Part shown: piece after piece, positions 23,120 through 40,980 of the stretch | How positions within the stretch are numbered: position 1 is the stretch's first letter | Layout: each line of letters opens with the position of its first letter | Made by a program: the position numbers and the translations under genes | Source of the DNA: a virus | Lineage: Duplodnaviria > Caudoviricetes | DNA length: 64,000 nucleotides | Reading direction: 5' to 3' (one strand) | IMG/VR virus record: IMGVR_UViG_3300011442_000010 | Span: 5,948-69,947 of that record | The notes under the pieces: model-generated | What the model saw: only the letters and a program-made list of their open reading frames with translations | Told to the model about the DNA's origin: nothing | The model's database searches: none

Positions 23120-23360
23120 TTTTCCTCCTATGCCCCACATGCCAATGATTTCCGCATGGGTAGCAGACCAGTCGATCCCGGTCGTAGACGTTGGGCTTCA
23201 AAAGAAGCTCCAGAAGCTGCTGACGAGCACCGGCTGGGGGCAAATCAGTTGCCTCCCCGGGGGAGTAGTAGTGGGGGTTCTTCCTCCAGCAGCGTTTGTA
23301 AGCCTCTGCTGGTTGGGTAAGTTGGAGTCTGGGGCGTTGTATGGCTCGGCGATTCATCAT
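23052..23360 (-). CDS. Hypothetical protein
   Basis: ATGA overlap with deformylase stop; overlaps next gene by about 70 nt. Confidence 0.4.
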   Translation of the reverse strand: MMNRRAIQRPRLQLTQPAEAYKRCWRKNPHYYSPGEATDLPPAGARQQLLELLLKPNVYDRDRLVCYPCGNHWHVGHRRKNAPASFGAVGVDGFGRPPVGGA

Positions 23361-23899
23361 ATTCTCTTATCGGTAATTAAAATTCCGAGGTTGTGATCTA
23401 TCTCATGTTGGATAGTAAACCCGTGATTCTGGCGCGTGAAGCGTTCCTGTCGCGTTCTACCATCTATATCCCACCAACGAACCTCCACCCAGTCGTATCG
23501 TGGAACGCGAATTGCTTGTGGGAGACGGATTGACCCGCAGTTAGAGAGGGTTTCAGTTATCTCCGTCGAGCGGGCACGAATATAAGGGTTTATCATAATA
23601 TGACAAACTTCCCCCGGTTTGCCCCGTTGCAAAACTACTCCAATAATGTTAAACGGAATCGCCAAATTCGCCCCGCTCATTCCAAAGGGTTTGGAGTAGC
23701 CGTCGAGGGAAGCAAGTGCCATCTCGCGGATGTAGTTACAGCACTGTTCCACAATCTTCTTGTATTGAGGCGAGGAGTGAAACAGCCGCATGTTCACATC
23801 AAGCAAACGTGTACGGAGATGCGGAATATCCTCCGTGTTGTTGATCCAGGTTAGAAAGTTATTTACGTTTCTATTCACACACCGCTCCCAAATGCGCAC
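23357..23899 (-). CDS. def: Divergent peptide deformylase
   Basis: IMINP, SNCGS (for EGCLS), RVPRYDWVEV, QHEIDHNLGILITD. Confidence 0.85.
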   Translation of the reverse strand: MRIWERCVNRNVNNFLTWINNTEDIPHLRTRLLDVNMRLFHSSPQYKKIVEQCCNYIREMALASLDGYSKPFGMSGANLAIPFNIIGVVLQRGKPGEVCHIMINPYIRARSTEITETLSNCGSIRLPQAIRVPRYDWVEVRWWDIDGRTRQERFTRQNHGFTIQHEIDHNLGILITDKRI

Positions 23900-24046
23900 T
23901 CGGATCTCTCGGGGCCATCAGCAATCTCCCCCCACCCATCGGGCAACAACTGTCTTCCACCGCGCGGATTACCCGACAGTAGGGGCATTGGATAGTCTCC
24001 ACTACCTCCACCGCGTCGAAGAACCTTACTGGGAAATATACCTTAC

Positions 24047-24508
24047 TCATAAATGAATCTCACTCAAAACTACCGTATGCTTCGTTCTTGGATTGAGAAA
24101 CTTCAACAAATGGCTCCATCTGTTCGTGTTTAGAATACACCGTTCTGGAACATTTGTATCTACGAACGTACACAGCATCATGCCGTAACCCAGTTCGCGA
24201 GCCAACTCTATCCGAAGTTGATTCAATAAACTTCCTATTCCCTGCTTTTGCCATTCAGGCATGACCTTAGAATGCGTACTTACACAAGCACCTGCACATC
24301 CGGGGAGCTGGTGAATCTCAAACTCTGCAACTTGCGAGAGAGTTTCCCCGCGTTGCCACACCTCATAAAATACAGGAGGCATCTTCGAGTAATACGCGAC
24401 TCCTGTCCTCTTATAGAGCGCCCAACGTGGAAATCTTTGGTTTAACTCTTCCGCAATGGCTTTTGGAATTTTAGCCGAATCTTGTATCATACCCCAAGCT
24501 CCCCCCAC
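24047..24508 (-). CDS. GNAT-like acyltransferase, CCG family copy 1
   Basis: QLPGCAG...WQKQGIGSLL (QxxGxG loop)...NPRTKH. Confidence 0.75.
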   Translation of the reverse strand: MGGAWGMIQDSAKIPKAIAEELNQRFPRWALYKRTGVAYYSKMPPVFYEVWQRGETLSQVAEFEIHQLPGCAGACVSTHSKVMPEWQKQGIGSLLNQLRIELARELGYGMMLCTFVDTNVPERCILNTNRWSHLLKFLNPRTKHTVVLSEIHL

Positions 24509-25485
24509 TTCTCCTTAAAATCCACATCCGGGTCAAACTGCAACCCCTTCACGCTATGATCTGCCAACAACCTCTCACACGCGCGGCGAGCATTACTGTC
24601 CTTCGCCTTGAAATACCCAAAGAACCTCTCAAGATTCCCCCACGCATTACCCGTGGTCTGTAGCGTCTCCAACGCCGTAGCGGGTGATACCGCTGCGAGC
24701 TTCGCCCCAGTGAGGCAGATATACGCTACCTTGGGATGAAACAACCAACTCGCCATAGTGCGGTATTCCATTCTGGTGCGTTGGCCCTCGCGCTCTCCTC
24801 CAGCAGTGCGAACGTCGCCGAATTGGCCATAACCGTTTCTCCTCGCCGTGGGATCATTCCTCCGCGTCTGGCACTCCCGACTAGGGAGGATGTCGAGGTG
24901 TTCGAGTTGCCGTGTTATGCGATCCAGCGCCTCCACCCTCTGCTCATGAGCCGCGGGATCACCTCCGTGGTCTCCCGGGGGCATATCGAGATGAACGTGC
25001 CCGCCCAGCGTCAATAGTCTCTGCCCCTGCGCATCCGCCAATCCATCCCCCGCCCTCACCCTCGCCCTAAGCGCCGCGCCCGCTCTCCACTTGTGCCCTT
25101 TGATCTCCGCCAGAGTTTTATTCCCCAAAATCTCCCTCTGAAGTCTCTTCACCACCGCATACGTCCCATGCGCGGGCTCAGGGCGAATCTCCACCACATG
25201 CCCATTGTGATCCCATCCCACCACGCCCCGTTGTCCCATCACTCCCGCGACGTTGAAGATGCTCCCATCCTTCGCCACCACCACAAATTCCGGATCACAC
25301 CCCACCAACCAGGTGTTTACTAGTCTCGCCGCCATAACAGTCTCATCCTCCAACGGAGGGAGGTTTCTCTCCCGCTCCCGTGCTTGTTGCTCCAAGAAAT
25401 CCCTATACTCCCCCATCGCGGAGTGATACCGCTCGGGGTTCCGTGCAATCGCGATGTCCCAAAATTCATTCCCTGGGCCTGGCAT
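24487..25485 (-). CDS. phiEco32-like COOH-NH2 ligase type 2, paralogue A
   Basis: VGCDPEF, EIRPEP, GGHVH, GYGQFGDVR, MEYRTMASW; likely start ATG 25485 (GGAG SD), ORF track start 25587. Confidence 0.9.
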   Translation of the reverse strand: MPGPGNEFWDIAIARNPERYHSAMGEYRDFLEQQARERERNLPPLEDETVMAARLVNTWLVGCDPEFVVVAKDGSIFNVAGVMGQRGVVGWDHNGHVVEIRPEPAHGTYAVVKRLQREILGNKTLAEIKGHKWRAGAALRARVRAGDGLADAQGQRLLTLGGHVHLDMPPGDHGGDPAAHEQRVEALDRITRQLEHLDILPSRECQTRRNDPTARRNGYGQFGDVRTAGGEREGQRTRMEYRTMASWLFHPKVAYICLTGAKLAAVSPATALETLQTTGNAWGNLERFFGYFKAKDSNARRACERLLADHSVKGLQFDPDVDFKEKWGELGV

Positions 25486-25495
25486 CCATTCTCTC

Positions 25496-25702
25496 CTAAG
25501 CGCACCCGGCCCAACAAACCGGGCCGCTTTCAATATGATCTCCACAGTGGTTACAAAATCCAACCCCGCACTTGCAAGAGGATACATCGGTGGATTTGCA
25601 ATCTGGGCATCTTGGCTCTGAGTGCCACCAGCCCCTAAACCACCAATGGTGGATTGGAGGATAGATCTTCCAGTTCCATAACCGAAGTAGATGTAGCTTC
25701 AT
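25496..25702 (-). CDS. Small Trp/Cys-rich protein
   Basis: ATGA overlap; CPDC...CKC...CNHC. Confidence 0.45.
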   Translation of the reverse strand: MKLHLLRLWNWKIYPPIHHWWFRGWWHSEPRCPDCKSTDVSSCKCGVGFCNHCGDHIESGPVCWAGCA

Positions 25703-25887
25703 TGTTTCCTCACAATAATCCTTCCACAAAAACTCCTCCCGGGGTGGCTAGATTCGATATGGGCATGTAGCTGTCCCATGCTCTCGCCCTCCCACCCGCA
25801 CCAAACACACCCTACCCGAGTGCTGCTTGGATTTTTCGCTTTATCCTGTGCCACCGACCTCTTACGCCAGAAAGAGATAATCCCCAT
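25699..25887 (-). CDS. Small C2H2 zinc-finger protein
   Basis: CVWCGWEGESMGQLHAHIESSH = C-x2-C-x12-H-x4-H. Confidence 0.6.
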   Translation of the reverse strand: MGIISFWRKRSVAQDKAKNPSSTRVGCVWCGWEGESMGQLHAHIESSHPGRSFCGRIIVRKQ

Positions 25888-26387
25888 TTCGCTGCCACCT
25901 CTGCATCGCGCAGGGAGTGGAGCATATCATCCATGAAGTCGCGTTCACCGGGAGTCAGCACATTCCACGCCTTGCGAAATGCAGTATCGGTGGAGGATTG
26001 AGAGAACTCACAGTAGAGATCAAGCACTTCCTTGGTGCTTAAGGATACAAACTTCTCCTTCTCTCTCGTCTCCCTCGCCCCATGAGCCTTACACACGTTT
26101 AGCACAATCCGGTGAAACCAGGTGGAGAACCTACTCCTCCCTTGAAACTTCTCCAAACTCCCCCACGCCCTCATCAGCGCCTCATTCACCACATCGGGCC
26201 TGCGATGCCCAAACACACTACTGGTTATGGCGTAGGCGTGAGATTCCATAGCTTTGAGAAGCATGTTATCCAGAGTAACATGACTTACTCCCCCCAACAC
26301 TCCCACAGTTTCTATGAAGAGCTTCCACGATTTATCGAGCCTATCCCCCGGGCGATCTCCAATCACCCTCGTGTGTTTGTTATTCAC
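25812..26387 (-). CDS. ECF-like RNA polymerase sigma factor
   Basis: GTG 26387 with GGAGG SD; region 2 DVVNEALMRAWGSLEKFQGRSRFSTWFHRIVLN; region 4 LTPGERD...EVAAKWGLSLSGVRGRWHRIKRKI. Confidence 0.9.
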   Translation of the reverse strand: MNNKHTRVIGDRPGDRLDKSWKLFIETVGVLGGVSHVTLDNMLLKAMESHAYAITSSVFGHRRPDVVNEALMRAWGSLEKFQGRSRFSTWFHRIVLNVCKAHGARETREKEKFVSLSTKEVLDLYCEFSQSSTDTAFRKAWNVLTPGERDFMDDMLHSLRDAEVAAKWGLSLSGVRGRWHRIKRKIQAALG

Positions 26388-26704
26388 CAATTCCTCCCCA
26401 TCGCGCCACAACAGTAGACACACTGCGTATCATCGTTCTTGTTCATACACCCCTTGCAGAATAGTTGGTTGCACCCTCGACAGTTGACCTCCCCTGGTTC
26501 CTGACAGGAAGAACATAACCTCGCGGCCTTCACCCCCGGCTTTGCCTCCGTGAGATCTCCCTTAAGGCACTCCGGACACGCCAGATAATTCTTCCCATCC
26601 ATCCTCACGCGCTTGAGCTCCGCGGGGAGAATCTGCGTTTGGCAGAGGAGGCAAAACAGCCCCGGGACTTCCCCTCGACGAGTGAGGTTCCTAACGCTCT
26701 GCAC
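26384..26704 (-). CDS. Cys-rich zinc-finger protein
   Basis: Multiple CxxC pairs (CLLC, CPEC, CSSC, CRGC, CKGC, CVYC). Confidence 0.6.
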   Translation of the reverse strand: MQSVRNLTRRGEVPGLFCLLCQTQILPAELKRVRMDGKNYLACPECLKGDLTEAKPGVKAARLCSSCQEPGEVNCRGCNQLFCKGCMNKNDDTQCVYCCGAMGRNW

Positions 26705-27134
26705 GGGGAACCTCCTGGCCTATGTCTCTCCAACCGGGTGTCTCTGCATCCACAAAAAGCCCGTTTCGGAAAGTTCCTGTTCTAAATCGTATCTGATGGC
26801 CTTCCTGCACAGGAAGTGGTGCAGTTCTTCTTCCTCCTCTTGCTACCCTACGCGCCATCTCTTCTCCTGTTGCGGTAGGCCGCGCAACTACCACCCTTCT
26901 CCTCCTCCCCCTCTTCTCCCTCCAAATCTTCAACTTCGCCTCTTGGGGCCAATCCGGGACACTCTCCACAATCTTAACAAGCTGCTGCCACATAGGGAGT
27001 CCAGCCAGACCTTTTGGGGTAAAATATCTCCCCGTGTTCTGTCGATAAAGGCTTGCCGCTAACCCAATCGCCTGACGAAGAGTAGCATATCTCATCCCTC
27101 CGAAGTTCAGGCTAACCCTAACTCTACTACTCAC
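26691..27134 (-). CDS. Hypothetical basic protein
   Basis: 147 aa ORF packed in operon. Confidence 0.55.
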   Translation of the reverse strand: MSSRVRVSLNFGGMRYATLRQAIGLAASLYRQNTGRYFTPKGLAGLPMWQQLVKIVESVPDWPQEAKLKIWREKRGRRRRVVVARPTATGEEMARRVARGGRRTAPLPVQEGHQIRFRTGTFRNGLFVDAETPGWRDIGQEVPRAER

Positions 27135-27867
27135 TCTTCTCCCCCTTTCTCCCCGGACACCCTTTCTCCACCCACCGAGTTATATGTTTCGCAAGTAGCT
27201 GAATACACTGTCTTCCCTCACCTTCAACTCCGGGAGCGGAGTTCGACTCCAGCACATAATACTCCCCATCCCTTCCGTGGATAATGTCAACCGCCCCAAA
27301 GTCAAGCCCCAAAGCTCCAATCGCCTTGCAAGCGACTGCCACTGCTTCCCGCGGAACGTTCTCTGCATGGACAAGTTCAAAGGCATATCCATTTCCATGG
27401 TTTCGTCCCACCATTCCTGGCCGCTTTGGAGCGTGCCGGAGAACCTTCTCATACGTACCAAGATGAGAGTTTCGATATACCCAGACTCGATACTCCCGAT
27501 CGCTATCAATGAATCTTGTGAAGAAATCACGTCGTTGGCTCCAGAATGCTACCGCCCGAAGTGTGCCACATAACCTGATATCAGTCCCGCCACGGTGATT
27601 AAAGCGCCGAGCCAGGACAGGAAGTGGGAGTTTAACCCCAATAGTAGAACCACTGCGCCAATACTGGGGCACCAAGATGCCAGCTTTAGCCAACCTTTCC
27701 AGCTCCTCATACTTATTTCCTCCCCCAGCCATCGCATTCAACACATTCTTCTGGGGACTCAACCTCACCCCATAGCTCACCGTGGCGTCTCCGGATACTC
27801 CCGAGAGCATACTCTGGAGAAGTTGTCCGGTGAGTCTACTTCCGCGAGCTACTATTACTCTAATCAT
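27127..27867 (-). CDS. ATP-grasp amide ligase (phiEco32/RimK-like)
   Basis: NKY...L..AGILVP, HRGGTDI, EYRVWV, RNHGNG, LDFGAVDII, VLESNSAPG. Confidence 0.9.
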   Translation of the reverse strand: MIRVIVARGSRLTGQLLQSMLSGVSGDATVSYGVRLSPQKNVLNAMAGGGNKYEELERLAKAGILVPQYWRSGSTIGVKLPLPVLARRFNHRGGTDIRLCGTLRAVAFWSQRRDFFTRFIDSDREYRVWVYRNSHLGTYEKVLRHAPKRPGMVGRNHGNGYAFELVHAENVPREAVAVACKAIGALGLDFGAVDIIHGRDGEYYVLESNSAPGVEGEGRQCIQLLAKHITRWVEKGCPGRKGEKSE

Positions 27868-28100
27868 ATACCCCTGACCTCCCCTAACGCATCAGGCGCG
27901 AGGAGTACCCAGCTCCCTTGTGGCGGGTTCTCTTGTCTCACCTCTTTGATCTCCCAATCCGGCCAGTTCTTCTTGCAGAAGTCCTCCGCGCCTTTGCCTT
28001 GTGCTGCCAAGACGTAGATATGTTCGGTGAGGTCTCGATAGATTAGGGCGCTTTTTACCCGCTTTTCTATCCTTACAGTCCAGTTTCTTCCTTGTTGCAT
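27864..28100 (-). CDS. Hypothetical protein
   Basis: 78 aa, start overlaps GATase stop. Confidence 0.55.
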   Translation of the reverse strand: MQQGRNWTVRIEKRVKSALIYRDLTEHIYVLAAQGKGAEDFCKKNWPDWEIKEVRQENPPQGSWVLLAPDALGEVRGI

Positions 28101-29140
28101 CAGTTCCCCCTCTCCCCCAGCAACCTCTTACAATGCCCACACTCGATCTCCCAAAGCTCCAACTTCTTCAACTCTCCGTCGATGATATTGCGCCCCTTAC
28201 AACTCGGCGCAGGACAAACCACCACATCAGGTTGCTCCACCACGGGAGCAGTTGCTGTCTCCAGCTTCTTCTCCTCCCTCCCCTGCTTCACCGTCTCCTT
28301 ATTCCTGTCCTGCCTCCGCTCCCTCTGCTTCCTCTCCCAATCCCGGTGGATGTTATACTGCACTTGGCTTCTCACTCCTCCTGCCGCCGAGAACCCATCC
28401 GCAAACTGCACCCCTTCGCTGGTGATGATAAACGCGCTTTCCTTCTCCACGGTGTTGAATTTGAGATCCATCCGGTTGGCTTTGAACGGGAATCCCCACT
28501 TCTTCACCCACACCCGGGAGGCGGCATGTATCGCTTCCTTCTCACTCGCCCACATAAGTTGGTTGTTGTGTTCCAGCATGGCGATCACGAGCGGAGAGCC
28601 GCTCCTCGCAAGTAGCAGAGTATCCGGCTGCTTCGGAGTCACCGCTGCAATCGCAGCACTCCCTCCGAGCTTATTCAACACCCTGATCCCCTCCTTCGTC
28701 AAGCCCTCCGCATCCAAGATGGCGCGGATAATATCCGTATCCACCTCCGCCTTGCGCTCCAACTTCAGGTCGTCGAAGAGCCACCGATGGTTATGGATCA
28801 TCCCATTATGGGTAACCGCCACTCCCCCTGCATAAACCGGGTGGTTGTTTTCGTTCTTATCGGGACTTCCAAGGGTAGCCAATCGGGTATGGAGCAACAC
28901 CGTCATGGTGTCCTCGCCCAAATGCTCCTCCAAAAACCTCGCAAACACCCTATCGCTAAGGATCTTCCACGCGATCTCCGGGCCTTTGCAAACCCTCACA
29001 CTCCCATCCCGCTTCTGCACCGCGATGCCCGTGGCATCCCCGCCACGGTGTTGAATCTTGATGAGCAGTGTTCTCACCTGTGTAACATCAATGGGAGCAC
29101 TGTCTTCTCCCATTCGCTTCAATCCCGCAATGCCGCAGAT
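28100..29140 (-). CDS. Class II (Ntn) glutamine amidotransferase
   Basis: Frame reads ATC-TGC-GGC-ATT-GCG-GGA (x-C-G-I-A-G) from 29140; HRGGDATG, HTRLAT, NNHP, HNGMIHN, VDTD; needs ATC start to keep Cys1. Confidence 0.9.
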   Translation of the reverse strand: MCGIAGLKRMGEDSAPIDVTQVRTLLIKIQHRGGDATGIAVQKRDGSVRVCKGPEIAWKILSDRVFARFLEEHLGEDTMTVLLHTRLATLGSPDKNENNHPVYAGGVAVTHNGMIHNHRWLFDDLKLERKAEVDTDIIRAILDAEGLTKEGIRVLNKLGGSAAIAAVTPKQPDTLLLARSGSPLVIAMLEHNNQLMWASEKEAIHAASRVWVKKWGFPFKANRMDLKFNTVEKESAFIITSEGVQFADGFSAAGGVRSQVQYNIHRDWERKQRERRQDRNKETVKQGREEKKLETATAPVVEQPDVVVCPAPSCKGRNIIDGELKKLELWEIECGHCKRLLGERGN

Positions 29141-29172: not shown

Positions 29173-30549
29173 TTACTGCTGAATTTGACTACCCTTCTCG
29201 AACAAAACCTTCCGCCCATCGTTCTGGGGTTCCCTCACCCTCCCCGCCATCACATCCTCCAACTTCCATACCCCGATGCTTCCATCACAGAGAAGCTCCT
29301 TGAAGACGGAGAGTTTACGCTTCAGGGCATAACTGCTGAGAACGAAGTTATAGGAGGGCTTCGACTTCACCTTCAACCCCAGCCTCGCGATCTTCACTCT
29401 TTGTCTCTGCGCCCACCAAGTTGGGGCTTCCATCTCGGATTCATGAAGCCTCGCGGCCACCACGTTAGAGTGTTCCCCTATATGCAGCGTCCCCCTAAAC
29501 ACCATCGGAACCATTCCAACGGGTTTCCAACCCTTGGGGATCTCCACCATGAGGCTCTCATATCCCCCAATCACTGGAATGGGAGTATTCTCCACCAACG
29601 CCGCCCAGATCTTCGCCTGAATTCCCTTGGGAGCCTCCGCCGCTACCACTCCAATTCCCTTCCGCTCCACCTTGGGGAGAAACGTGATCCCCCAAGCAGT
29701 GTTCATCCCACGCGGTTTCTTCGGAAGCCCGTGCCTTCGAATCATCTCCCAGCAAAGCTCCGCATCATCGTCTAGGCCACGAAAGTAGGCAAGGAACATC
29801 TTGATTCTGTGAGTAGCATATTCCGGGGAATCCCCATTGGTGCGGTTGAGCATAATCAAATCCGGCCTCACCACCGCTAACTTCGTCAACGTCAACACCA
29901 ACATCGCCTGAGCGGGAGACTCCACAAAGCTCGGGAACCCCCTATACTCCCATCCCCAACTCTGCTTCTTCCAATCCCCCAGCAACCCCACCGGAGCCAT
30001 AGGCCAGGTATTCCGTAGCTTCTGCTCCTCCCGGCTAAACACCCCCGCAGAGATCAACAACTCCATAACCTCATCCAGCGCCACAACTTCCCGTAGGCGG
30101 TTCTCCGTTCGCAATCGGGCAAACCCCACTCTCCCACTCAGCGGAAATCCCTCCTTCAACCACCCACCACTCTCCCAAGAGTAGGCTCCGGAATGGGTAC
30201 TCAACACATCCGCTCCCTGCAACCCAAACGCTAGATTCCCCACCACCTCCAACACTCTCCTACTCCCTTTGGCCGTAACCATCACCGAGCGGGTAGCTTG
30301 ATGGAGCCGGGCAAATCCCCCGAGAACCGTCGCGCTTGCTCTCAGCTCCCCCTCTCTCCTCGCCCCCACCATCACCCTCGCGCCGATGGTGAAACGATTA
30401 ACCAACCGGGGAATCTCCCGATACCTCACCCTCCACTGCCTCTCCAATCCCTTCACCCATTCGTTGGAAATCGGCCCGGTGGCTACACTTCTCCCCTGCC
30501 GGACGCTCTCTTCCACTATTCTGCGCTTGATGTCTCGGAATTCTGCCAT
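29173..30549 (-). CDS. Degenerate COOH-NH2 ligase type 2, paralogue B
   Basis: ATG 30549 with GGAG SD; keeps GLLGDWKKQSWGWEYRGFPSF..SP..A.LVLTLTKLAV but FTIGARV replaces GxDPE and SGRVGF replaces GGHxH. Confidence 0.7.
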   Translation of the reverse strand: MAEFRDIKRRIVEESVRQGRSVATGPISNEWVKGLERQWRVRYREIPRLVNRFTIGARVMVGARREGELRASATVLGGFARLHQATRSVMVTAKGSRRVLEVVGNLAFGLQGADVLSTHSGAYSWESGGWLKEGFPLSGRVGFARLRTENRLREVVALDEVMELLISAGVFSREEQKLRNTWPMAPVGLLGDWKKQSWGWEYRGFPSFVESPAQAMLVLTLTKLAVVRPDLIMLNRTNGDSPEYATHRIKMFLAYFRGLDDDAELCWEMIRRHGLPKKPRGMNTAWGITFLPKVERKGIGVVAAEAPKGIQAKIWAALVENTPIPVIGGYESLMVEIPKGWKPVGMVPMVFRGTLHIGEHSNVVAARLHESEMEAPTWWAQRQRVKIARLGLKVKSKPSYNFVLSSYALKRKLSVFKELLCDGSIGVWKLEDVMAGRVREPQNDGRKVLFEKGSQIQQ

Positions 30550-30550
30550 G

Positions 30551-31378
30551 TTACTCCACCACCCATCTATCCATCCATGCATGTCTCCGCCGAGGTTGAG
30601 GCGCTTCCTGCTCCACTTGCTGCCTCGCTCGACGCAATCTCTCTTGTTCCAACACCAACATCGCTGGCCAAGTGGTGGTAGCTGTTTGTTGAGGTTGCGT
30701 AGGTGGCGGTGTTTGGGCTTGTTGGTGAAGCTCTTGTGCTATTTCAACTTGTCGAGGCGTTACAGGCCACGCAAAGTCAGGAGCGGTAGCCGCTCTTACC
30801 TCCATATCTCCATAATCCGCCCACTGCGTTGGAGCTGCTTTTTTCTTCTTCTGCGGCTGCTGGCCTACCACATTCACCCTTCGCCGGTAGTCCGTGATGT
30901 AGATCGCCCCAATCTCCGGACTCACCCCATACACCCTCGCGTTCGCCCCCAGCGCACAATCAATCCTATGCACCCAAACTCCACCCCTCATCCACGCCGT
31001 CGCAGCCGCACGAAGGTCATGCCACGGGTGATACACCGTCCAGAGCCAGGGAGAAACCACTTGAAGTGGGATGCTGGTAACCTGCCCTCTTCTGGTGGGT
31101 TGATCCCATCCAAGAATAGTCTTCGCCACCATCCACGCTCGATCCCACTCCATAACCGCCAGAAGCCTTATTCCTCCCCTATCCGCTTCCTTCTCAAACC
31201 TCTTCGCCGCAATCGCATTGGGCTTCCCCACATATCTCCAAATCCCATGCTCTCCCCCTCTCTCCCACTCCACCATCATCCTCACCCGGGTGGGATACTT
31301 CCCCGGAAACGGAGCGGGAATCGCAAAATCCCCCGCCTTCGGAAGCTTCATCGCCCTTGTCATGCTAAGTCGTAGCAT
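30551..31378 (-). CDS. Hypothetical protein
   Basis: 275 aa, Gln/Pro/Thr-rich C-terminal linker. Confidence 0.6.
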   Translation of the reverse strand: MLRLSMTRAMKLPKAGDFAIPAPFPGKYPTRVRMMVEWERGGEHGIWRYVGKPNAIAAKRFEKEADRGGIRLLAVMEWDRAWMVAKTILGWDQPTRRGQVTSIPLQVVSPWLWTVYHPWHDLRAAATAWMRGGVWVHRIDCALGANARVYGVSPEIGAIYITDYRRRVNVVGQQPQKKKKAAPTQWADYGDMEVRAATAPDFAWPVTPRQVEIAQELHQQAQTPPPTQPQQTATTTWPAMLVLEQERLRRARQQVEQEAPQPRRRHAWMDRWVVE

Positions 31379-32090
31379 TATTATTCATCCTCTCCCAGGT
31401 CTCCTTCGCACTGCGGAGTCTCCCCTGCATCTCCGGGGTGTTGGTCTTCGCCATTGCCTCAAACAGTAGCGGATAGGTCGGGTCATCAAACATCCAACGA
31501 TGTTGGCATTCTGTGGAGCACAACGGCACCCCCCACTTCCCCCCGGTGCATTTCTTCTCACAAACCACACACTTCTTCTGCGCCAGGAGATATCCGTATG
31601 CCGCGGTCAAATGCACACTACATTTGTAGCGATCCATGTGAACCTTCATCCTCACCGCCCGCAGGCTCTCACACACCACCCAACGACAGGCTCTGCACCT
31701 GGCCCACTGGCTTACCGCCAACTCCCCTCCCTGCCAGAAGCGGTATTCCTCTACCTGGAGATTCCCCTCTCCGGAGAAGTCCAGGCGCTTTGGAGGAGTA
31801 ACATCCCGTTGCCACATCTTCTGCTTCCTCACCGGCCCATAGATCGCATGCTGCTCCCACTCCCCTTTGATACGTGATGGCGCAGTCCACACCTTCTTCC
31901 CGCGCTTGAGCAGCGGCCAGCGAGTGCCATCAGGCATCACGCTTTGCATGAGGAGCTTTATTGGGGGGTGGAATTTTTCTTCTGCCATACCCATATCCAG
32001 TGATTTAGAACCATCTTCAAGTCCCAAATCGCAGTTGCGATGCGCCCGAAGTTGATTGCAGCAACTAATGCGATTACCGCATAAAGCCAT
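31365..32090 (-). CDS. Hypothetical protein with Cys-rich zinc motifs
   Basis: CRAC...C...H..C..H and CVVC...PLCSTEC; true start probably downstream of 32090. Confidence 0.55.
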   Translation of the reverse strand: MALCGNRISCCNQLRAHRNCDLGLEDGSKSLDMGMAEEKFHPPIKLLMQSVMPDGTRWPLLKRGKKVWTAPSRIKGEWEQHAIYGPVRKQKMWQRDVTPPKRLDFSGEGNLQVEEYRFWQGGELAVSQWARCRACRWVVCESLRAVRMKVHMDRYKCSVHLTAAYGYLLAQKKCVVCEKKCTGGKWGVPLCSTECQHRWMFDDPTYPLLFEAMAKTNTPEMQGRLRSAKETWERMNNNATT

Positions 32091-32185
32091 TGCAACACGT
32101 CGAATTGTAGTTTCACTTCCATATCTTCATGCCCCACTCCCCACATACAAACACCCACTCGGAACCACCGCGCGCTTCCAAACAT
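31958..32185 (-). CDS. Small membrane protein
   Basis: Hydrophobic WLYAVIALVAAINF segment. Confidence 0.4.
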   Translation of the reverse strand: MFGSARWFRVGVCMWGVGHEDMEVKLQFDVLQWLYAVIALVAAINFGRIATAIWDLKMVLNHWIWVWQKKNSTPQ

Positions 32186-32492
32186 ATGCCGTTACGGGGA
32201 ATTCCGTACTGTCCCGATGCCCAAAACTGGTAAATCCCACCTCTTCCCTCATAAACCCTCCCTGCTCACCCCCACTCAACCTATCCACCCCCATAATCAC
32301 CTCCGGGGGAACTACCCAGAGTTCCCCAAACACCCGAGAGGCTCCGGGTTTGATGAGGTGAAAATCCCCCTGCCGGTACAAATCCATATTCCACACACAC
32401 CCTCGGGTGATAAACGTCGCGCCCCAGTTATAGAGGAGGGGGTTGAAGCGTTTCCCTCGTGTGAGACTCCCGTAGACGAATAGCTTTTCCAC
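32127..32492 (-). CDS. Gamma-glutamylcyclotransferase (AIG2-like) family protein
   Basis: LFVYGSL..G, VFGELW, DRLSG (for DxLEG), AYVW. Confidence 0.85.
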   Translation of the reverse strand: MEKLFVYGSLTRGKRFNPLLYNWGATFITRGCVWNMDLYRQGDFHLIKPGASRVFGELWVVPPEVIMGVDRLSGGEQGGFMREEVGFTSFGHRDSTEFPVTAYVWKRAVVPSGCLYVGSGA

Positions 32493-32493
32493 C

Positions 32494-33071: not shown

Positions 33072-33605
33072 TCAGGCGTTAGTTTCCGTCCGAGAGCGGC
33101 TGGATGAAGATCCCCTCCCATGAGTACTCCTTTTCGTCTGAGACTTCTTCCCCGCTGGTTGGCGGGAAACTTGCGATGCCATCTTCTTCAGGTGAGCGGC
33201 ATTCACTTTCTTGGCCGCTGCCCATACTGCCTTACACCAAGGGCAAAGAACCTGTTTTTCTTCAACGTCCGGGTTGCAGGTACACCCCGGCTTCTCCTGC
33301 TTCATATTCCCCTTCGCCCCTGCGAGAGGCTTCCAGTTTCTCCCGCGCGCCCAAAGATGGAGCTGGGTATTTCCATTCCCCGTAAACTCCAACACCTGCT
33401 CAAACCCCCGGCTCTCCAATGCCTTCACCACGGATTTGTTATTGTGTTGGGTTGGACTGGTAATCGCCACGGTAAAGTAGTGAAACTCCGTCTCCGCGGG
33501 CATGTTGGAAGCTTTTTGCTGCTCCGTGGCTCCCGCTTGATCTCCATATAGTCCCGTTAAAATCTGCGCCCCACAACACGCGGGGAACCCTTGCAACTGC
33601 GCCAT
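33072..33605 (-). CDS. GNAT-like protein, CCG family copy 2 (lacks QxxGxG loop)
   Basis: QGFPACCGAQIL...ALESRGFEQVLEF...LHLWAR. Confidence 0.6.
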   Translation of the reverse strand: MAQLQGFPACCGAQILTGLYGDQAGATEQQKASNMPAETEFHYFTVAITSPTQHNNKSVVKALESRGFEQVLEFTGNGNTQLHLWARGRNWKPLAGAKGNMKQEKPGCTCNPDVEEKQVLCPWCKAVWAAAKKVNAAHLKKMASQVSRQPAGKKSQTKRSTHGRGSSSSRSRTETNA

Positions 33606-34365: not shown

Positions 34366-34737
34366 CTACCGCGTGTTCTTCTTCATCAACAACGCGATCT
34401 GGTGTCCGTGGTGTTCTCCTGGGAACCGCGTGATCTCGGAGAAACCCAGGGCCAGCAACGCCGCCAACGCCTTACTCTGGCTCTGCACATCCACCGTGGC
34501 GAGGGTGACTTTTCCCGCCTCGCCGATGTGGTTCTGCGCGGCTTGCTTCGTGGGCTTGCCGTCTTCGCTGAGATCATTGTCGTAAGGGAAGTCGCTCAAC
34601 ACTTCCACCCCACAACATCCGGGGAAATCCTTATCAATCTGCACCGCGGAGATGTCGTTCTCATCCCCCACAATAGCCCGGAAATCCACCGCCGTTGTGG
34701 GAGTTCTCCGTGCCGTAGTCCTTCGTCTCGTAGCCAT
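34366..34737 (-). CDS. GNAT-like protein, CCG family copy 4
   Basis: KDFPGCCGVEVL...ALLALGFSEITRF...GHQIALLMK; Arg/Thr-rich N-terminal tail. Confidence 0.6.
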   Translation of the reverse strand: MATRRRTTARRTPTTAVDFRAIVGDENDISAVQIDKDFPGCCGVEVLSDFPYDNDLSEDGKPTKQAAQNHIGEAGKVTLATVDVQSQSKALAALLALGFSEITRFPGEHHGHQIALLMKKNTR

Positions 34738-34783: not shown

Positions 34784-35221
34784 CTACTTCCCAAACAACT
34801 CCAAAATCTTCTGAAGCGCGAAGTATTCAGGGTTCACGAATCGCATAAGCGCATCGCTGAGATTCGCGAAGAACCCAATCGTAGTACCAATCAACGCGAG
34901 GAAGCTAAAAACGGTACTAAAACCCGCCCCATCGTCGTTCCAATTGCACTCTTTCACAGCCGCGTAAGACTTCTTAAACCACCACAACGCGACGAGGAAG
35001 AGCGCCCCAAAGCAGAGTGCCCAGATTAGCCACTGCACCCCCTCCGCAATTCCCTGTCTCACCAACACCCCCCACAAATGCCCCGCGGCCACCCCCAGCT
35101 TCTCACTCAACGCATCGAGCCGTTTGAAAATCTCCGCTTTCCAATCCGTATCGAAAAGCACCGCCATGATATAGTTCATCATGAACATTCCAAGTAGTTT
35201 CATCTGCAACATATTACACAC
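34784..35221 (-). CDS. Phage membrane protein
   Basis: LDALSEKLGVAAGHLWGVLVRQ followed by two TM helices and NPEY. Confidence 0.65.
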   Translation of the reverse strand: MCNMLQMKLLGMFMMNYIMAVLFDTDWKAEIFKRLDALSEKLGVAAGHLWGVLVRQGIAEGVQWLIWALCFGALFLVALWWFKKSYAAVKECNWNDDGAGFSTVFSFLALIGTTIGFFANLSDALMRFVNPEYFALQKILELFGK

Positions 35222-35501
35222 TCCTCACTTCCCAATCCGTCCCACTCCAAATATGCCGGTAGTTGTGCCGCTTATGCCAACCCCTCCACGGGAGTTTCCC
35301 CCACCTCGGAGCCAAGTACCTCCACCCGGGAAGGCTGGAGTGGATCTCGGGAGAAGGCTTCGCGTGTCTTATCGCTCTGTCTCTTGCCCACGCTCCCCAC
35401 AACAACCACAGGTCTAGCAAGACCAGCGCAATCAGCAAGAACCAAATACCTCTTCCCTTCCTCATGATTCCTCCTCGCCACACTCCGCATATCCGCGTCA
35501 A
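35214..35501 (-). CDS. Small membrane-anchored protein
   Basis: WFLLIALVLLDLWLLWG TM segment. Confidence 0.45.
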   Translation of the reverse strand: MTRICGVWRGGIMRKGRGIWFLLIALVLLDLWLLWGAWARDRAIRHAKPSPEIHSSLPGWRYLAPRWGKLPWRGWHKRHNYRHIWSGTDWEVRSV

Positions 35502-36198: not shown

Positions 36199-36462
36199 CT
36201 AGGTGGTAATAATCACTTGTGTTCCTTCTGGGAGAACGCGGTAATCACTCCCCCCGAAGTTTTTGGCATTATGGACGCTGTGATATCCTTTAGACAAACC
36301 GAAAGCCGAATCAACCCCTGTTTTATAATACAGGACGTGCTCGTCTGTTCCAATTTGAAATACCCGTAGCAAGGGAATGTCTGCAAATGGCACACCCCGC
36401 GATACCGGATCACGTTTTACTTCTATCTTCAATCCCCACCTCCCATCCAGCCTTCGCTCCAA
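36199..36462 (-). CDS. Hypothetical protein
   Basis: 87 aa ORF. Confidence 0.5.
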   Translation of the reverse strand: MERRLDGRWGLKIEVKRDPVSRGVPFADIPLLRVFQIGTDEHVLYYKTGVDSAFGLSKGYHSVHNAKNFGGSDYRVLPEGTQVIITT

Positions 36463-36794
36463 CCCCCTATGACTGGAAATCTTCTAAAATCTCTCACATT
36501 AATCGCCCCTCCCTGATACCCACTCCACGTCCAAACCTTCTCCCCTCGAACTTCCTTCCTCTTCTCCAGATGCTCCCTGCATTCCTTCTTCCCACAGCAA
36601 AATATCCCCGCTTCTTCCACCCACCCGTACTCATCAAACCTCCTCGGCCTCCCACACCTACACGGCTCCAACGCCACCATCTTCAGCCCAAAGCAGAGTT
36701 GGCATACTCCATCCTGCTTCCGGAGTCTGGGATTCACCTCCACCCCATATCCCTCACACGCGGGACACACCGCGAACCTTTCACTGGACGCCAT
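36429..36794 (-). CDS. Zinc-finger protein with CxxCxGxG-like repeats
   Basis: CPACEGYG...CQLCFGLK...CRCG...CCGKKEC. Confidence 0.55.
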   Translation of the reverse strand: MASSERFAVCPACEGYGVEVNPRLRKQDGVCQLCFGLKMVALEPCRCGRPRRFDEYGWVEEAGIFCCGKKECREHLEKRKEVRGEKVWTWSGYQGGAINVRDFRRFPVIGGWSEGWMGGGD

Positions 36795-38169
36795 AACTAT
36801 AGTTCCCCCAGGTGCATTTAGGAGAACCGGAGTGCTCTACCCAAATCTCCCCCATCCTCCAATTCTTCTCCACCTCACTCCAACTCGGAACCACCGCCCC
36901 CAACCCTTCCATAATCATCTTCATCCCCAACTTCGCCCCACTCACTCCCCAACACGTCTGCATAATGGTGTTGAACTGCTTCTCATTACGCTGAACATAC
37001 TCCCTCGCCCCCTGCACATCCCCATACTGAATAGTCTGAATCACCTCCTGCTCACACCCATCCATCACGCCCCTCAATCTCTCCCTCCCCATCGTAAGGC
37101 TCTTCCGAGTAAGCCCCAAAACGAAGTGTGCCACCGCAGGATGACACATCCAACCGTTGGAGAGGACACGGTACTCTACCCCGTGGGAGGGTAAGCGGTG
37201 TTCTCCGGGAAGTCCATAGTAGCGCCTCCTCACCGGATTATCCACCTCCGCGAAAATCCCCACACTCGCCATCCCCACAATCGCATCGGCGCACTTCACC
37301 ATCTCCCGGGCATCCTCGGGATTGAGGGTTCCGATTCCGTAGTGATAATGGCCTCCCGCAAACCTCACTCCAAGCTCCCGAGGGTTCTCCACCGGCATTC
37401 CCATCAACCCATACGCATTCACACTCGGCTTACACCCCAACTCCACAAACTCCTGCTTCGCCCCCATCAGCATCTCCTGGGGAATTTCCACCACCGTCTT
37501 GGCCGATAGCCTGCTCCCCGGATACTGCTTCGTGGTTTTCTTCCAGAGACTCTCCAATCCCTCCCGGATACTATCTACCTGATACGCGAGGCAGGTATCC
37601 GCCTGTGTAGCGATCTCCGCCTGGAATCCATCCCAGTAGCAGAAGCCTCCGATGCGAAGGGGGGAGGGCTGTTGTGCGCCTCCGTTCCATATCTGGAGCT
37701 TCCTCTCCTTCGCCGCTATGTCCTTATGTGGCAAAAACTCCCACGCTGGAATCACCCCACCTTCCTTGCTCTCCACAAATATCTCGGGATCACTCCCAGA
37801 GAACGCCCCGCCAGTGCCCATGTTCTGGAGCGCCCCCAGCAGGTTTTTCCTCTGCCAGTTCGCTACGCTCGCACGGAGTTCCTGCGCCACATCTCCGGAT
37901 ACCCTCTTAAACTTCACATCCTTCGGAACATAGAGCCAGTTCTCTCTCCACTGCCCAGGGCCAACTTCCGCTCGAAGGTAGAGGTAATCATGCCCCACCC
38001 TCCCATAAACATCCGGCGTGGCTCTCAACGCCTCCACCTTCCCACTGGCGTTGGGATAGTAGCGTTTGAGCCAATCCCCAAGCTCTACTTCTGCCCACTC
38101 CCTCAATGGGAGTCCTGCTTGTTGTGTCTCCACTGTTCTCCTCCTGCATCGTGCGGGAAGGGAGAACAT
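36781..38169 (-). CDS. phiEco32-like COOH-NH2 ligase type 2, paralogue C
   Basis: GSDPEIF, WDGFQAE, LGCKPSVNAY, RFAGGHYH, RRRYYG..GEHR...HGVEYRVLSN.W. Confidence 0.9.
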   Translation of the reverse strand: MFSLPARCRRRTVETQQAGLPLREWAEVELGDWLKRYYPNASGKVEALRATPDVYGRVGHDYLYLRAEVGPGQWRENWLYVPKDVKFKRVSGDVAQELRASVANWQRKNLLGALQNMGTGGAFSGSDPEIFVESKEGGVIPAWEFLPHKDIAAKERKLQIWNGGAQQPSPLRIGGFCYWDGFQAEIATQADTCLAYQVDSIREGLESLWKKTTKQYPGSRLSAKTVVEIPQEMLMGAKQEFVELGCKPSVNAYGLMGMPVENPRELGVRFAGGHYHYGIGTLNPEDAREMVKCADAIVGMASVGIFAEVDNPVRRRYYGLPGEHRLPSHGVEYRVLSNGWMCHPAVAHFVLGLTRKSLTMGRERLRGVMDGCEQEVIQTIQYGDVQGAREYVQRNEKQFNTIMQTCWGVSGAKLGMKMIMEGLGAVVPSWSEVEKNWRMGEIWVEHSGSPKCTWGNYSYGVQ

Positions 38170-38247: not shown

Positions 38248-39396
38248 TCACACTCTCCCCCCTTCCCACCCCTTCTTCTGCTCCATTCTCCCCTTCACCA
38301 CCGCCCAAACTCTCTCCTCCGGATCTCTCCCGTACATCATATCCGCTAGGATGGGGCGAAGCTCCGTTTTGCTCATAGTAAGCCTCAGCATCTGATCCCA
38401 AACCTTATCTCTCCCCTGCGCAGTGTCCAACCTTCTCCACACCGCCTTCGCGTCTATCTCCACATCCCAAGCATCTCTCCGCAGCATCGAGCATTGTCCG
38501 CGAATCCACGCCCGGAAACCCTCCGGCAGCTCATCCCCCTCCAACGGCCCAAGCTCCGCACCCTGTCTCAGTAGATCACACAACCCCGAGGGAGTCACAG
38601 TGCGGAGGAGATTCCGGAGTTTCTCATACCCCTCATCACGAAGAATTACCCGAAACGGAGGCTCTCCCTTCCTCACCCACCTCAACACCCACCCTCTTCC
38701 CCTACACTCCATCCCGGAGAGTTCCCCGATCTCCTTCACCTTCACCCTCGGCACCGGCAGCATATCATTCCACCCACACCACTGTTGCATAGTGTCGTAG
38801 GAGAGTTCGCTCCCATCACTCTTCCGGACAAGAGCCACCACATAAATCTGCTCCTCCGTATAGCTTCTCACCCTTCTCCATCTATCCCCCACCACCTGTA
38901 CCACCGGGGTAACTCCCCCAGGCCAAGTCGCCTCCTTCTCCCGGGTTCTCATCCTATGGCTCCCCCACCCAATCGCGGGAGAGACGAATCCGTAGCGGTT
39001 GGCCAGCGCGGGCTTCCCATCACTCCCTTCATACACCACACACTGCTCTCCATCCAGCATCTCGGTGATTTCCGGCATCTCCGAGGAGAAATTCTCCACC
39101 TTCGTCTCCGGAAGTCCCTTCGTATCCTCCTGAAAAAACTTCCCCCATGGCCTAGCGATGATCTTCCCTTCCCTCGCCACGATCCCCCTGCACGTCATCG
39201 TTTCCCTGTCCCACAACCTCTCCCTCGCGCATTTCTCCGTATAGGTGAACAGATGTGTCTTCCCATCCGGATGGCTCACCTGCCGGATATTCCCCTGAGC
39301 GATGTGCCAGACGATCTTCTCCGCGTCAAGGCAATCTCGTATCTCGGGGTTCTCCACCCTCTGGGAGAGATTAAGTTGGATCAGTCCGGATTGCAT
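38248..39396 (-). CDS. T4 RNA ligase 1-like protein with degenerate catalytic motifs
   Basis: LFTY...WD...CRGIV...IIARPWGKFF N-domain; motif I reads EMLDG (K to M). Confidence 0.8.
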   Translation of the reverse strand: MQSGLIQLNLSQRVENPEIRDCLDAEKIVWHIAQGNIRQVSHPDGKTHLFTYTEKCARERLWDRETMTCRGIVAREGKIIARPWGKFFQEDTKGLPETKVENFSSEMPEITEMLDGEQCVVYEGSDGKPALANRYGFVSPAIGWGSHRMRTREKEATWPGGVTPVVQVVGDRWRRVRSYTEEQIYVVALVRKSDGSELSYDTMQQWCGWNDMLPVPRVKVKEIGELSGMECRGRGWVLRWVRKGEPPFRVILRDEGYEKLRNLLRTVTPSGLCDLLRQGAELGPLEGDELPEGFRAWIRGQCSMLRRDAWDVEIDAKAVWRRLDTAQGRDKVWDQMLRLTMSKTELRPILADMMYGRDPEERVWAVVKGRMEQKKGWEGGRV

Positions 39397-39635
39397 TAAA
39401 GGGAATACCTCACTCCCGTGATCTCTCCGAAGTTGCCTATTATTCCGGTGCAGAATCCCACCACCAGAGGCATCCCGGGCTTCAGTAGTGGGCGGGTAGC
39501 GAGGATCGCTGCATGTCTCTCCTCCACCCTCCCAAGCGCATCCACACTGGAAAACCTCACCCCCACTACTTCGGAGGAGAATTCATATTGCCGCCCGCCT
39601 TCAACCGTTACTCTCGCTTTCATTTCTGCCCCCAA
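39396..39635 (-). CDS. Hypothetical protein
   Basis: 79 aa, stop overlaps next start. Confidence 0.5.
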   Translation of the reverse strand: MGAEMKARVTVEGGRQYEFSSEVVGVRFSSVDALGRVEERHAAILATRPLLKPGMPLVVGFCTGIIGNFGEITGVRYSL

Positions 39636-39950
39636 AACTCTGCAAGCTCGCTGACAATTCCATTGAATATTACCGGACTTACGCCGTCTATAGCCATTCT
39701 CTTGTTAATAGCTTCGTCTGAATTACAGTTACACTCTCCCTCACAATCACACTCTACTATCCATCTCTTGTAGGGATGGGGGCCATCTATCCAACTCACA
39801 ACCTCTCCTTCACAGCTTCGTAGACTTCACGAAGGATATTAATCTCAGCCTCTGGCACCTTATACATCTTCTCCCCATGCACATACCCAAACGTAGAAGC
39901 TTCCAATATCCGCTCAATCGCCTTCTTTAACTCCAATCTCTTCCGCTCGT

Positions 39951-40250
39951 TCACTCTTCTCTCCTCCTCCCTCTCACCGGAGCCTTGTCTGCGTTGGTAG
40001 CCTCTGGGGGGAGAATCTCCAAATTCTCCGACAATATCCTTCGTTGTTGCTCCTCCTCCACCTCTTCCTCATCCCTCGGAGCCGTTAGAGCCTCCTCCAG
40101 CGCAGTCTTCCACTCCCCCAGTTCCCACACCGGAACTCCTGTGCTTTGGGTGGTCACGACGGCAAACTCCACTAGCTTGAGGAGATCACGGAGCTCCAAC
40201 TCTCCCTCAAACAACACCCCAAACTCCCCTCCCTCAATTACCTGTGCCAT
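39951..40250 (-). CDS. Acidic hypothetical protein
   Basis: 99 aa ORF, operon-packed. Confidence 0.5.
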   Translation of the reverse strand: MAQVIEGGEFGVLFEGELELRDLLKLVEFAVVTTQSTGVPVWELGEWKTALEEALTAPRDEEEVEEEQQRRILSENLEILPPEATNADKAPVRGRRREE

Positions 40251-40509
40251 GGTTATCTACCTCATCCACCTCATCGCAAACCGAGATGTAGGTTTCAAGT
40301 GCAACGCGTAATCTTTCTGCCATTTCATAAGGAATGGTCTTAATGTTCCGACTTTTACGATGTCCAGCCGGTATCCAGTTGTAAATCTCATCCAACACTA
40401 CTTGTGCCATATCCCCATCCACTCCCTTACCCTCGTCCAGAGCCTTTGCCATGTTCCATGACTCCGCTTGTGCCCCGCGAGCGCAAACGAGAAAAACTCC
40501 CTCCCACAA
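40234..40509 (-). CDS. Hypothetical protein
   Basis: 91 aa ORF; true start probably MAKALD. Confidence 0.5.
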   Translation of the reverse strand: MWEGVFLVCARGAQAESWNMAKALDEGKGVDGDMAQVVLDEIYNWIPAGHRKSRNIKTIPYEMAERLRVALETYISVCDEVDEVDNHGTGN

Positions 40510-40512
40510 TGT

Positions 40513-40980
40513 CTACACCTCTTCAGCCCGATAGTCATGATCGCCTCTCACCCTTCCTTGGGGGTTCCACTCTTCTCTCGCACAATGTGCCCACAAATAG
40601 AGTATTTTCTTCCAAGCCCACTGCCAAGGCCGCTTGGTAAGCCTCACAGGTTTCTTCCCCTCGCTCAAATCCCTCACCCAAAGAGTGATCTGGTTCCCTG
40701 TTTTGGGATTGGGGGTGGTAAGCACCGGATAAAACTCATGCGCTTGTAGATGCCGGATGCTTTCCGCGTTGTTCCCCTCGTTGCTGGTAGTAGCAAACGC
40801 AATCCCTGCCATGTGATCCTTTAGCAGAAAGGGAATGGTATCCGCTTGGGAGCGCCCGGATTTCCATTCATGGTGATACCCTCCGTTGCCATCTGGCATC
40901 CACTCCCAATGGCCATTCCCGTCCAAATCCCAAACCTCAATCATCCCACAGCATCCGTGGGTTCGAGTGCTACGTTGCAT
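40513..40980 (-). CDS. GNAT-like protein, CCG family copy 5
   Basis: THGCCGMIEV...AFATTS...HLQAHEFYPVLTTPNPKTGNQITLWVRDL. Confidence 0.6.
   Translation of the reverse strand: MQRSTRTHGCCGMIEVWDLDGNGHWEWMPDGNGGYHHEWKSGRSQADTIPFLLKDHMAGIAFATTSNEGNNAESIRHLQAHEFYPVLTTPNPKTGNQITLWVRDLSEGKKPVRLTKRPWQWAWKKILYLWAHCAREEWNPQGRVRGDHDYRAEEV

Follow-up and report, generated by a model that had tools for sequence, protein, structure and literature searches.

The minus-strand gene island at positions 23357-40980 of an uncultured phage genome (Caudoviricetes) is best read as an enlarged, clade-specific version of the phiEco32-type amidoligase cassette, with predicted amide-bond chemistry and a macromolecular or peptide target that is only weakly held. 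We assign this reading a probability of roughly 0.55. The window, which is the whole stretch of DNA analysed, has 64,000 nucleotides (nt) and corresponds to bases 5948-69947 of the 69,947-bp IMG/VR record IMGVR_UViG_3300011442_000010, which is rated complete by CheckV. The base cassette, with ligases of the Pfam family PF14395, is not new and was reportedly described by Iyer, Abhiman, Burroughs and Aravind in Mol Biosyst in 2009. What is new is the architecture with three PF14395 genes as the trait of a clade, the hallmark protein families Zn121, p241 and p275, and a family of proteins with a CCG motif (CCG family) together with its association with the ligases. Also new are lineage-specific pseudo-enzymes (ligase 2 and a protein resembling the RNA ligase Rnl1), which appear to be kept under selection.

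The following genes of the island have predicted amide-bond chemistry, or are paralogous to genes that have it:

24487-25587, minus strand: ligase 1, a PF14395 COOH-NH2 ligase (E 1e-17) with all invariant motifs intact
27127-27867, minus strand: RimK-like ATP-grasp ligase of 246 amino acids (aa) (phrog_2599, 5e-23)
28100-29140, minus strand (listed as 28100-29122): class-II (N-terminal nucleophile, Ntn) glutamine amidotransferase (GATase; match to GATase_6, 3e-16)
29173-30582, minus strand: ligase 2, a PF14395 paralogue (E 1e-9) without the catalytic motifs
32127-32492, minus strand: GGACT/AIG2-like gamma-glutamyl cyclotransferase (PF06094, 1e-8)
36781-38169, minus strand: ligase 3, a PF14395 COOH-NH2 ligase (E 2e-8) with all invariant motifs intact

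A previous interpretation of the window from its letters alone (the sequence-only reading) had named these families and several of those listed further below. Pfam and phrog matches place all of them on the minus strand, where that reading had put them.

The ligases of this phage were aligned with those of 12 other multi-ligase phages. The motifs D-P-E, E, H-x-H, D, R, R and E-x-R are present in nearly every aligned ligase, a few having a single substitution, and the complete set (DPE, E, HxH, D, R, R, ExR) is kept in ligases 1 and 3, two intact carboxylate-amine ligases of the GCS/GS-like kind. Ligase 2 reads R-V-M, M and R-G at invariant columns, and it does so only here and in its 86%-identical orthologue from L005, a collinear relative (87% identical). 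The ratio of nonsynonymous to synonymous substitution rates (dN/dS) against L005 is 0.13 for ligase 2. Because this is similar to the value for the live ligase 3 (0.15), ligase 2 appears to be a catalytically dead but conserved pseudo-enzyme and not a decaying gene. In a FastTree tree, each genome contributes a single ligase to each of three orthologue clades, so that the triplication seems to be old; ligase 2 of this phage forms a long branch in the ligase 2 clade. As regards the triplication that had been claimed, three PF14395 paralogues are indeed present, and the active set was overstated, as ligase 2 has lost its motifs. In Pfam, all three match PF14395 only and none matches PF12224 (Amidoligase_2), genes of which are present in the relatives L008 and L009. 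Ligase 3 has 212 homologues in a large protein collection; a phmmer search of PDB with ligase 1 gave no match. The ATP-grasp protein keeps the Mg motif of RimK (D...E-x-N), and its best PDB match is RimK (5zct/4iwx, E 1e-3).

For the GATase, the start codon had to be reconsidered. The listed TTG start falls six codons past the catalytic Cys, so that Cys1 is cut off. The Cys1 codon is TGC (29137-29135), and the codon just before it in the same frame is ATC (29140-29138), which is probably the start. Relatives of this protein begin with GTG- or ATG-Cys-Gly-Ile-Ala-Gly. In the phiEco32-like Escherichia phage SU7 (MZ342906), the annotated start of the GATase also removes the Cys. The gene there reads stop-AAA-ATT-TGT (L004, 11594-11599), and SU7 and the island are thus alike in having Cys1 behind a rare ATH codon (ATT in SU7, ATC here). 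Because of this ATC/ATT start pattern and a dN/dS of 0.04, the GATase is read as probably active and putatively ATC-initiated. A pseudo-enzyme devoid of Cys1 had also been considered, and this idea was dropped once the ATC/ATT-before-Cys pattern had been seen. The Cys-rich C-terminal tail of the protein (28100-28250; C-x4-C ... C-x2-C) resembles a zinc ribbon.

Three further proteins are hallmarks of the multi-ligase islands:

30551-31378, minus strand: p275, with an N-terminal domain PFPGKYPTR...Y-GKP...EFDR...YHP, conserved in the alignment, and a low-complexity tail
31365-32090, minus strand: p241, with a C-terminal multi-Cys/His domain, conserved in the alignment (predicted to bind zinc)
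36429-36794, minus strand: Zn121, a small Cys-rich protein, the gene of which overlaps the stop codon of ligase 3 and always directly follows it

In p241, the residues C132, R133, C135, H151, C174, C177, P189 and C195 are invariant in the alignment, and the AlphaFold2 (AF2) model of the domain has a confidence (pLDDT) above 90. The protein has no Pfam match, no significant ESM Atlas match and no Foldseek match in PDB at E<=0.001. Similarly, p275 has neither a Pfam match nor a significant ESM Atlas match, and Zn121 matches no Pfam family. Searches with p241 and p275 gave weak leads to FCS/MYND-type zinc fingers only. The true start of p241 is probably near Met35 (~31988), since the alignment of its relatives and the Atlas record begin there; the listed open reading frame (ORF) of 241 aa would then be about 35 residues too long. 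Because the GATase tail, Zn121 and p241 are all Cys-rich, several proteins of the island may bind metal.

The layout of the island recurs in uncultured phages. With a profile, 73 loci were found in IMG/VR, a pattern scan with a single protein having found none. In a set of 50 whole IMG/VR records that carry a homologue of ligase 3, three PF14395 genes are present in 12 and two in about seven. The gene order in 10 of the 12 triple-ligase islands that were fetched is lig3-Zn121-(CCG/GGACT)-p241-p275-lig2-GATase-ATP-grasp-sigma-lig1; G013 and G026 (records of 106-110 kb) have a shorter arrangement. Protein identity is 25-50% among about a dozen independent IMG/VR genomes, most of which have the same order. 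The relative L006 (52%) keeps Rnl1-like-lig3-Zn121-CCG-CCG-GGACT. The JGI contig L010/L011 (43%, 61.6 kb) has lig3-Zn121-CCG-CCG-GGACT-p241-p275-lig2-GATase-ATP-grasp-CCG/GNAT-sigma-lig1, followed by AAA_24, JAB and polymerase genes. The linkage of the ligases is thus kept in related phages, both on metagenome contigs and in IMG/VR records. The layout with three PF14395 genes appears to be a trait of an uncultured clade of phages of about 58-125 kb and not a peculiarity of this genome. It had been stated that no system with this full composition has been described; this holds for the literature and the cultured phages searched, and the layout is common in IMG/VR.

For 69 unique IMG/VR loci, genes at a distance of <=10 kb from the homologue of ligase 3 were counted with self-built profiles. 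An ATP-grasp gene is found at 52 of these loci, a GATase at 50, a CCG-family gene at 33, GGACT at 27, Zn121 at 19, p241 at 18 and p275 at 11. The sigma factor was detected at 6 (most of the sequences compared end before its position), the deformylase at 2 and the Rnl1-like gene at 1. When all 72 loci are considered, Zn121 is present at 19/25 multi-ligase loci versus 1/47 single-ligase loci; p241 (19/25) and p275 (11/25) are confined to multi-ligase loci. In the jumbo records L014, L016 and L017 (432-452 kb), two or three tandem ligase-3 paralogues are followed by a GGACT-containing protein of 324-351 aa, and CCG-GNAT genes come after the latter (one in L016, three in L017). In L008 (8158-11395), a ligase-3 homologue (40% identical) directly follows a cytidine/tRNA-type deaminase and an RtcB RNA ligase, with two PF12224 amidoligases and a GATase nearby on the opposite strand.

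The CCG family has five members in the island:

24047-24508, minus strand: CCG-family GNAT of 153 aa with the motif CAG and a coenzyme A (CoA) loop QKQGIG (weak match to Acetyltransf_1, 1e-3)
33072-33605, minus strand: mini-CCG protein of 177 aa, a half-GNAT without CoA loop
33626-34258, minus strand: CCG-GNAT of 210 aa with a full GNAT fold (AF2 and Foldseek) and a CoA loop QKKGIG
34366-34737, minus strand: mini-CCG protein of 123 aa, a half-GNAT without CoA loop
40513-40980, minus strand: mini-CCG protein of 155 aa with an N-terminal CCG and no CoA loop (hhalign; orthologues in L005 and L006)

These proteins form a single family. In a profile-profile comparison, the short members (123, 155 and 177 aa) correspond to the C-terminal half of the long ones (hhalign probability 98.6, E 7e-16). 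The AF2 model of the 210-aa protein (pLDDT 78.8) has 436 Foldseek matches at E<=0.001, with only GNATs among the matches listed, and the family profile matches GNATs in PDB (4mbu, 1.6e-4). The 210-aa protein shares the fold and the Q/RxxGxG/A loop with known GNATs (PDB 4mbu, 2r7h, NatD). Unlike these, the CCG family has a nearly invariant P-x-C-C-G, and many of its members are half-size and have lost the CoA loop. Of the island members, only those of 153 aa and 210 aa have the loop, while those of 123, 155 and 177 aa are without it. The five GNAT-like genes of the sequence-only reading are therefore one family with a GNAT fold, of which only two are full GNATs and three are half-GNATs. Because the CoA loop is missing in three of the five, the proposal that these proteins acylate is doubtful.

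An exhaustive HMMER search with the 210-aa protein gave 727 cluster representatives, mostly of about 155 aa and with the consensus PGCCG...R-x-KGIG...GYT...N-x-RTGN, while tblastn with two CCG members against 50,697 records of cultured phages gave no match. The co-occurrence of GNAT-like genes and ligases, which had been predicted, is confirmed by the 33 of 69 loci given above. All 43 CCG genes are on the same strand as the nearest ligase, 16% lie <=50 nt from it (1% upon random placement), and the median distance is 1.1 kb versus 3.0 kb. The 153-aa gene of the island overlaps the stop codon of ligase 1 by 22 nt and has a 34%-identical orthologue in L011. A typical CCG-GNAT of 163 aa is located in L012 (2396-7109) between a weakly PRPP-synthetase-like gene and RlaP plus Ro60/TROVE, which is an RNA-repair neighbourhood. 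The CCG motif is positioned at the beta3-beta4 turn in the model of the 210-aa protein, about eight residues upstream of what we take to be the acetyl-holding site of GNATs, and a role of its cysteines as a substitute for the CoA thioester was set aside in view of this position. It is tempting to speculate that the CCG proteins are partners of the PF14395 ligases (as thiol carrier or acceptor, or as metal-bridged adaptor), forming together with Zn121, p241, p275 and the dead ligase a phage-only machine for protein or peptide conjugation; we consider this quite unlikely.

For the cassette as a whole, we envisage the following. Its genes would be transcribed as part of the early/middle region, upstream of those for replication. 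The ligases would use ATP to activate carboxylates for coupling to amines, and the products are most likely glutamate-type amides (gamma-glutamyl or C-terminal Glu). The amidotransferase would supply glutamine-derived ammonia, turning an activated carboxylate into a carboxamide, and GGACT would remove a gamma-glutamyl group via cyclisation. The proteins may act as a multi-protein machine on a macromolecular or peptide substrate, which could be a protein of the host or the phage, or else a peptide stem of the cell wall. In PMC10580990, Iyer et al. 2009 is cited for a cell-wall modification that blocks superinfection, the sole published proposal for the cassette. A multi-protein machine on a protein or peptide fits slightly better than a free metabolite, because Zn-finger proteins and catalytically dead yet conserved partners accompany the ligases.

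A small-molecule pathway is an alternative to be taken seriously, though on the whole unlikely. A short peptide-like metabolite, for instance an antimetabolite or a protected intermediate, would be built residue by residue by the ligases, amidated by the amidotransferase and capped by a GNAT, with GGACT removing a gamma-glutamyl protecting group. The kinds of enzymes match the natural-product routes to butirosin and dapdiamide, and PMC4431377 states that linked peptide ligases often work successively in metabolite synthesis. The Pfam scans revealed no carrier protein, exporter or gene for self-resistance, however, and both the dead-yet-conserved partners and the presence of several Zn-finger proteins would be unusual for a metabolite pathway.

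Several points weigh against reading the island as an amide-forming cassette of the phiEco32 type. In the literature searched, no experimental study of such a cassette (activity, product or target) was found. The gene order is conserved within one phage clade, and shared descent alone could hold unrelated early genes together. The Pfam match of the ATP-grasp protein to RimK (4e-4, 20.4 bits) is below the cut-off of 21. The ATC start of the GATase is deduced from sequence, and a 1-nt deletion relative to L005 at this very start could be an assembly error. No family or fold could be recognised for p241, p275 and Zn121. Finally, in a reading of the C-termini of the island proteins, no shared C-terminal tail and no candidate tag or substrate were seen.

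It must also be asked whether there is a common pathway at all. Terminase, portal and major head protein are encoded on the plus strand. The minus-strand arm leads from small early genes through the island to the replication genes (exonuclease, Sak4-like annealing protein, JAB protein, PolA-type DNA polymerase and primase). The island itself is one co-directional block in which adjoining genes overlap by 1-40 nt. Because of these overlaps, and because the order recurs in independent IMG/VR genomes, the block is not a chance grouping. It might still consist of independent early genes which are joined only by the inherited architecture of the clade. Synteny with L010/L011 extends over the whole genome and takes in polymerase, JAB and AAA_24. 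For the sigma factor, the deformylase, the membrane proteins and several small ORFs, no chemical connection with the ligases is evident. We consider this distinctly unlikely, as the core of ligase, GATase and ATP-grasp, sometimes with GGACT or CCG, recurs across phage types that are not related to each other, namely in phiEco32-like phages, in jumbo uncultivated viral genomes and in many records of 40-125 kb, and as CCG genes are nearer to ligases than expected from random placement. The phage has no close relative in culture. Megablast of the island against cultured phages gave no match, the capsid protein is <=30% identical to any entry of the phage collection, and PF14395 is lacking in StenR_269, DES1 and Rollin, whose capsid proteins are the nearest among cultured phages. 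A scan for promoters and terminators gave a signal no higher than in shuffled sequence. The stand-alone Prok-JAB protein (PF14464, 2e-8; 14824-15444) adjoins the PolA-type polymerase, and this pairing is also found in the 43%-identity relative L011 (17245-20063), the polymerase of which is called UDG-fused PolA.

The remaining genes of the island are:

23357-23899, minus strand: peptide deformylase at the island edge (PF01327, 7e-15)
25812-26423, minus strand: sigma-70 family factor between ATP-grasp and ligase 1 (PF04542, Sigma70_r2, 4e-9)
26384-27134, minus strand: two small proteins, one Cys-rich (106 aa; weak B-box match below the cut-off) and one basic (147 aa)
34784-35501, minus strand: two small membrane proteins of 145 and 95 aa (34784-35221: phrog_1486, 4e-19)
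38248-39396, minus strand: Rnl1-like protein (phrog_562, 3e-11)

Both small membrane proteins are lineage-specific, being found in close relatives only, and the 106-aa and 147-aa proteins have no relatives in any fetched locus.

In the deformylase, the metal ligands are present (the Cys of the EGCLS motif, here NCGS, and HExxH, here HEIDH) and motif 1 is degenerate. Co-occurrence of this gene with the ligases had been predicted and is not borne out, since it is found in only 1/19 multi-ligase genomes, and in 0/14 of those that are >=90% complete, in addition to the low count among the loci. The only other multi-ligase genome with a deformylase is G028 (a 125-kb record; L097, 13005-13646), where the gene is located between ligase 2 and p275. 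Because the deformylase of G028 is inside the island, a repeated recruitment to the neighbourhood of the cassette is suggested. The deformylase is thus an accessory gene and not a member of the pathway. If it is linked at all, its simplest role would conceivably be to help expose the N-terminal Cys of the GATase; an Ntn nucleophile requires removal of the initiator formyl-Met.

Only region 2 was detected in the sigma factor, and no homologue was found in cultured phages. The sequence-only reading had called it the island's own. It is embedded in the conserved gene order, the promoter scan remained at the level of shuffled sequence, and nothing ties the factor to the island. Because the whole genome is syntenic in the clade, it is most simply treated as the phage's own transcription factor inside the block.

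These results bear on the most elaborate proposal, a full write/erase tagging pathway in which amines are exposed by the deformylase and residues added by three ligases, with amidation by the GATase, acylation by five GNATs, erasure by a gamma-glutamylcyclotransferase (GGCT) and expression under a private sigma factor. All the named families are present, CCG/GNAT-like genes co-occur with ligases, and a deformylase is likewise located within the island of the distant genome G028. Given that the deformylase is missing from 18/19 multi-ligase genomes and from 67/69 loci, that ligase 2 is predicted to be dead and three CCG proteins lack the CoA loop, and that no island promoters can be tied to the sigma factor, we regard this pathway as very unlikely; with deformylase and private sigma factor included, it is not supported.

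In the Rnl1-like protein, motif I is EMLDG in this phage and L005 and LMLDG in L006, while the genes in L010 and L076 have DKLDG and EKLDG, respectively. Motif IV is also missing and reads GRGWVL, as in L005 and L006. The dN/dS is 0.07, and phmmer against PDB gave no match. The protein seems to be a conserved non-ligase: the RNA-ligase-like gene that had been noted is present, with the catalytic Lys of motif I replaced by Met.

In this context, a function in the modification or repair of nucleic acids should be considered, with the ligases adding amino-acid-type groups to tRNA or to DNA bases. Ligase 3 homologues are near Rnl1-type genes in this phage, L005, L006, L010 and L076, or near RtcB and a deaminase in L008, and a CCG-GNAT is beside RlaP and Ro60/TROVE in L012. 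The Rnl1-like gene is, however, near the ligase in only one of the IMG/VR loci counted, and the local copy is catalytically dead. Moreover, no hydroxymethylase, base-kinase or deazaguanine gene was found in the 40 ORFs scanned with Pfam, which cover most minus-strand ORFs from 8.4 to 50 kb, the plus-strand structural region being outside the scan. We consider this function very unlikely.

The phiEco32-type cassette is among the most widespread phage enzyme sets for which no experimental test was found, and the CCG family with its 727 clusters accompanies the ligases in phages that range from 60 kb to jumbo size. The partner proteins and the retained dead enzymes are concrete handles for finding the target of the cassette. 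The deformylase and the sigma factor are eye-catching neighbours that should not be built into a pathway model.

Among known systems, pupylation is a parallel. PafA, a carboxylate-amine ligase of the same broad superfamily, joins the Glu side-chain carboxylate of Pup to a protein amine, and its paralogue Dop reverses this reaction. PF14395 is a different family, and no Pup-like small protein ending in GGQ or GGE was seen among the island C-termini. RimK (ribosomal protein S6 L-glutamate ligase) extends the C-terminus of S6 with Glu. Among solved structures it matches the ATP-grasp protein best, and the metal motif is common to both, but the alignment is confined to the C-terminal third, the phage protein has 246 aa compared with about 300, and nothing points to an S6-like substrate.

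GGACT acts on gamma-glutamyl amines. In butirosin biosynthesis, the ATP-grasp protein BtrJ adds a gamma-Glu protecting group which the GGCT-like BtrG removes, and in dapdiamide biosynthesis the ligase DdaG, the AsnB-like amidotransferase DdaH and the ATP-grasp protein DdaF act in turn. The logic resembles that of the island: a ligase or ATP-grasp enzyme adds a residue, an amidotransferase amidates, and a GGCT-like protein removes a gamma-glutamyl group. Unlike the island, these are bacterial natural-product clusters with carrier proteins. A precursor of the graspetide/microviridin type between GATase and ATP-grasp was considered and rejected, as the local 78-aa ORF is not conserved; the two genes are directly adjacent (0-16 nt) in 5/11 relatives.

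The closest counterpart is the cassette of SU7. It shares with the island a PF14395 ligase, a RimK-like ATP-grasp protein, a class-II GATase and GGCT/GGACT, and in both phages the genes are co-directional and lie between early genes and primase/polymerase. Where the island has three PF14395 paralogues, SU7 has a PF14395-like ligase and a gene annotated by its depositors as 'amidoligase enzyme'; with its ATP-grasp gene, these are its ATP-dependent ligases. The major capsid protein of this phage is unrelated to those of phiEco32-like phages, and the self-built profiles of CCG, p241, p275 and Zn121 have no match in the SU7 locus. Found in the island only are Zn121, p241, p275, the five-member CCG family, the embedded sigma factor and one dead ligase. 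The description as greatly expanded is thus apt as to enlargement, which is only relative given that SU7 already has three ATP-dependent ligases. That the island is an enlarged relative of the phiEco32-type set agrees with the smaller set which SU7 carries at the equivalent position, upstream of its primase and polymerase genes.

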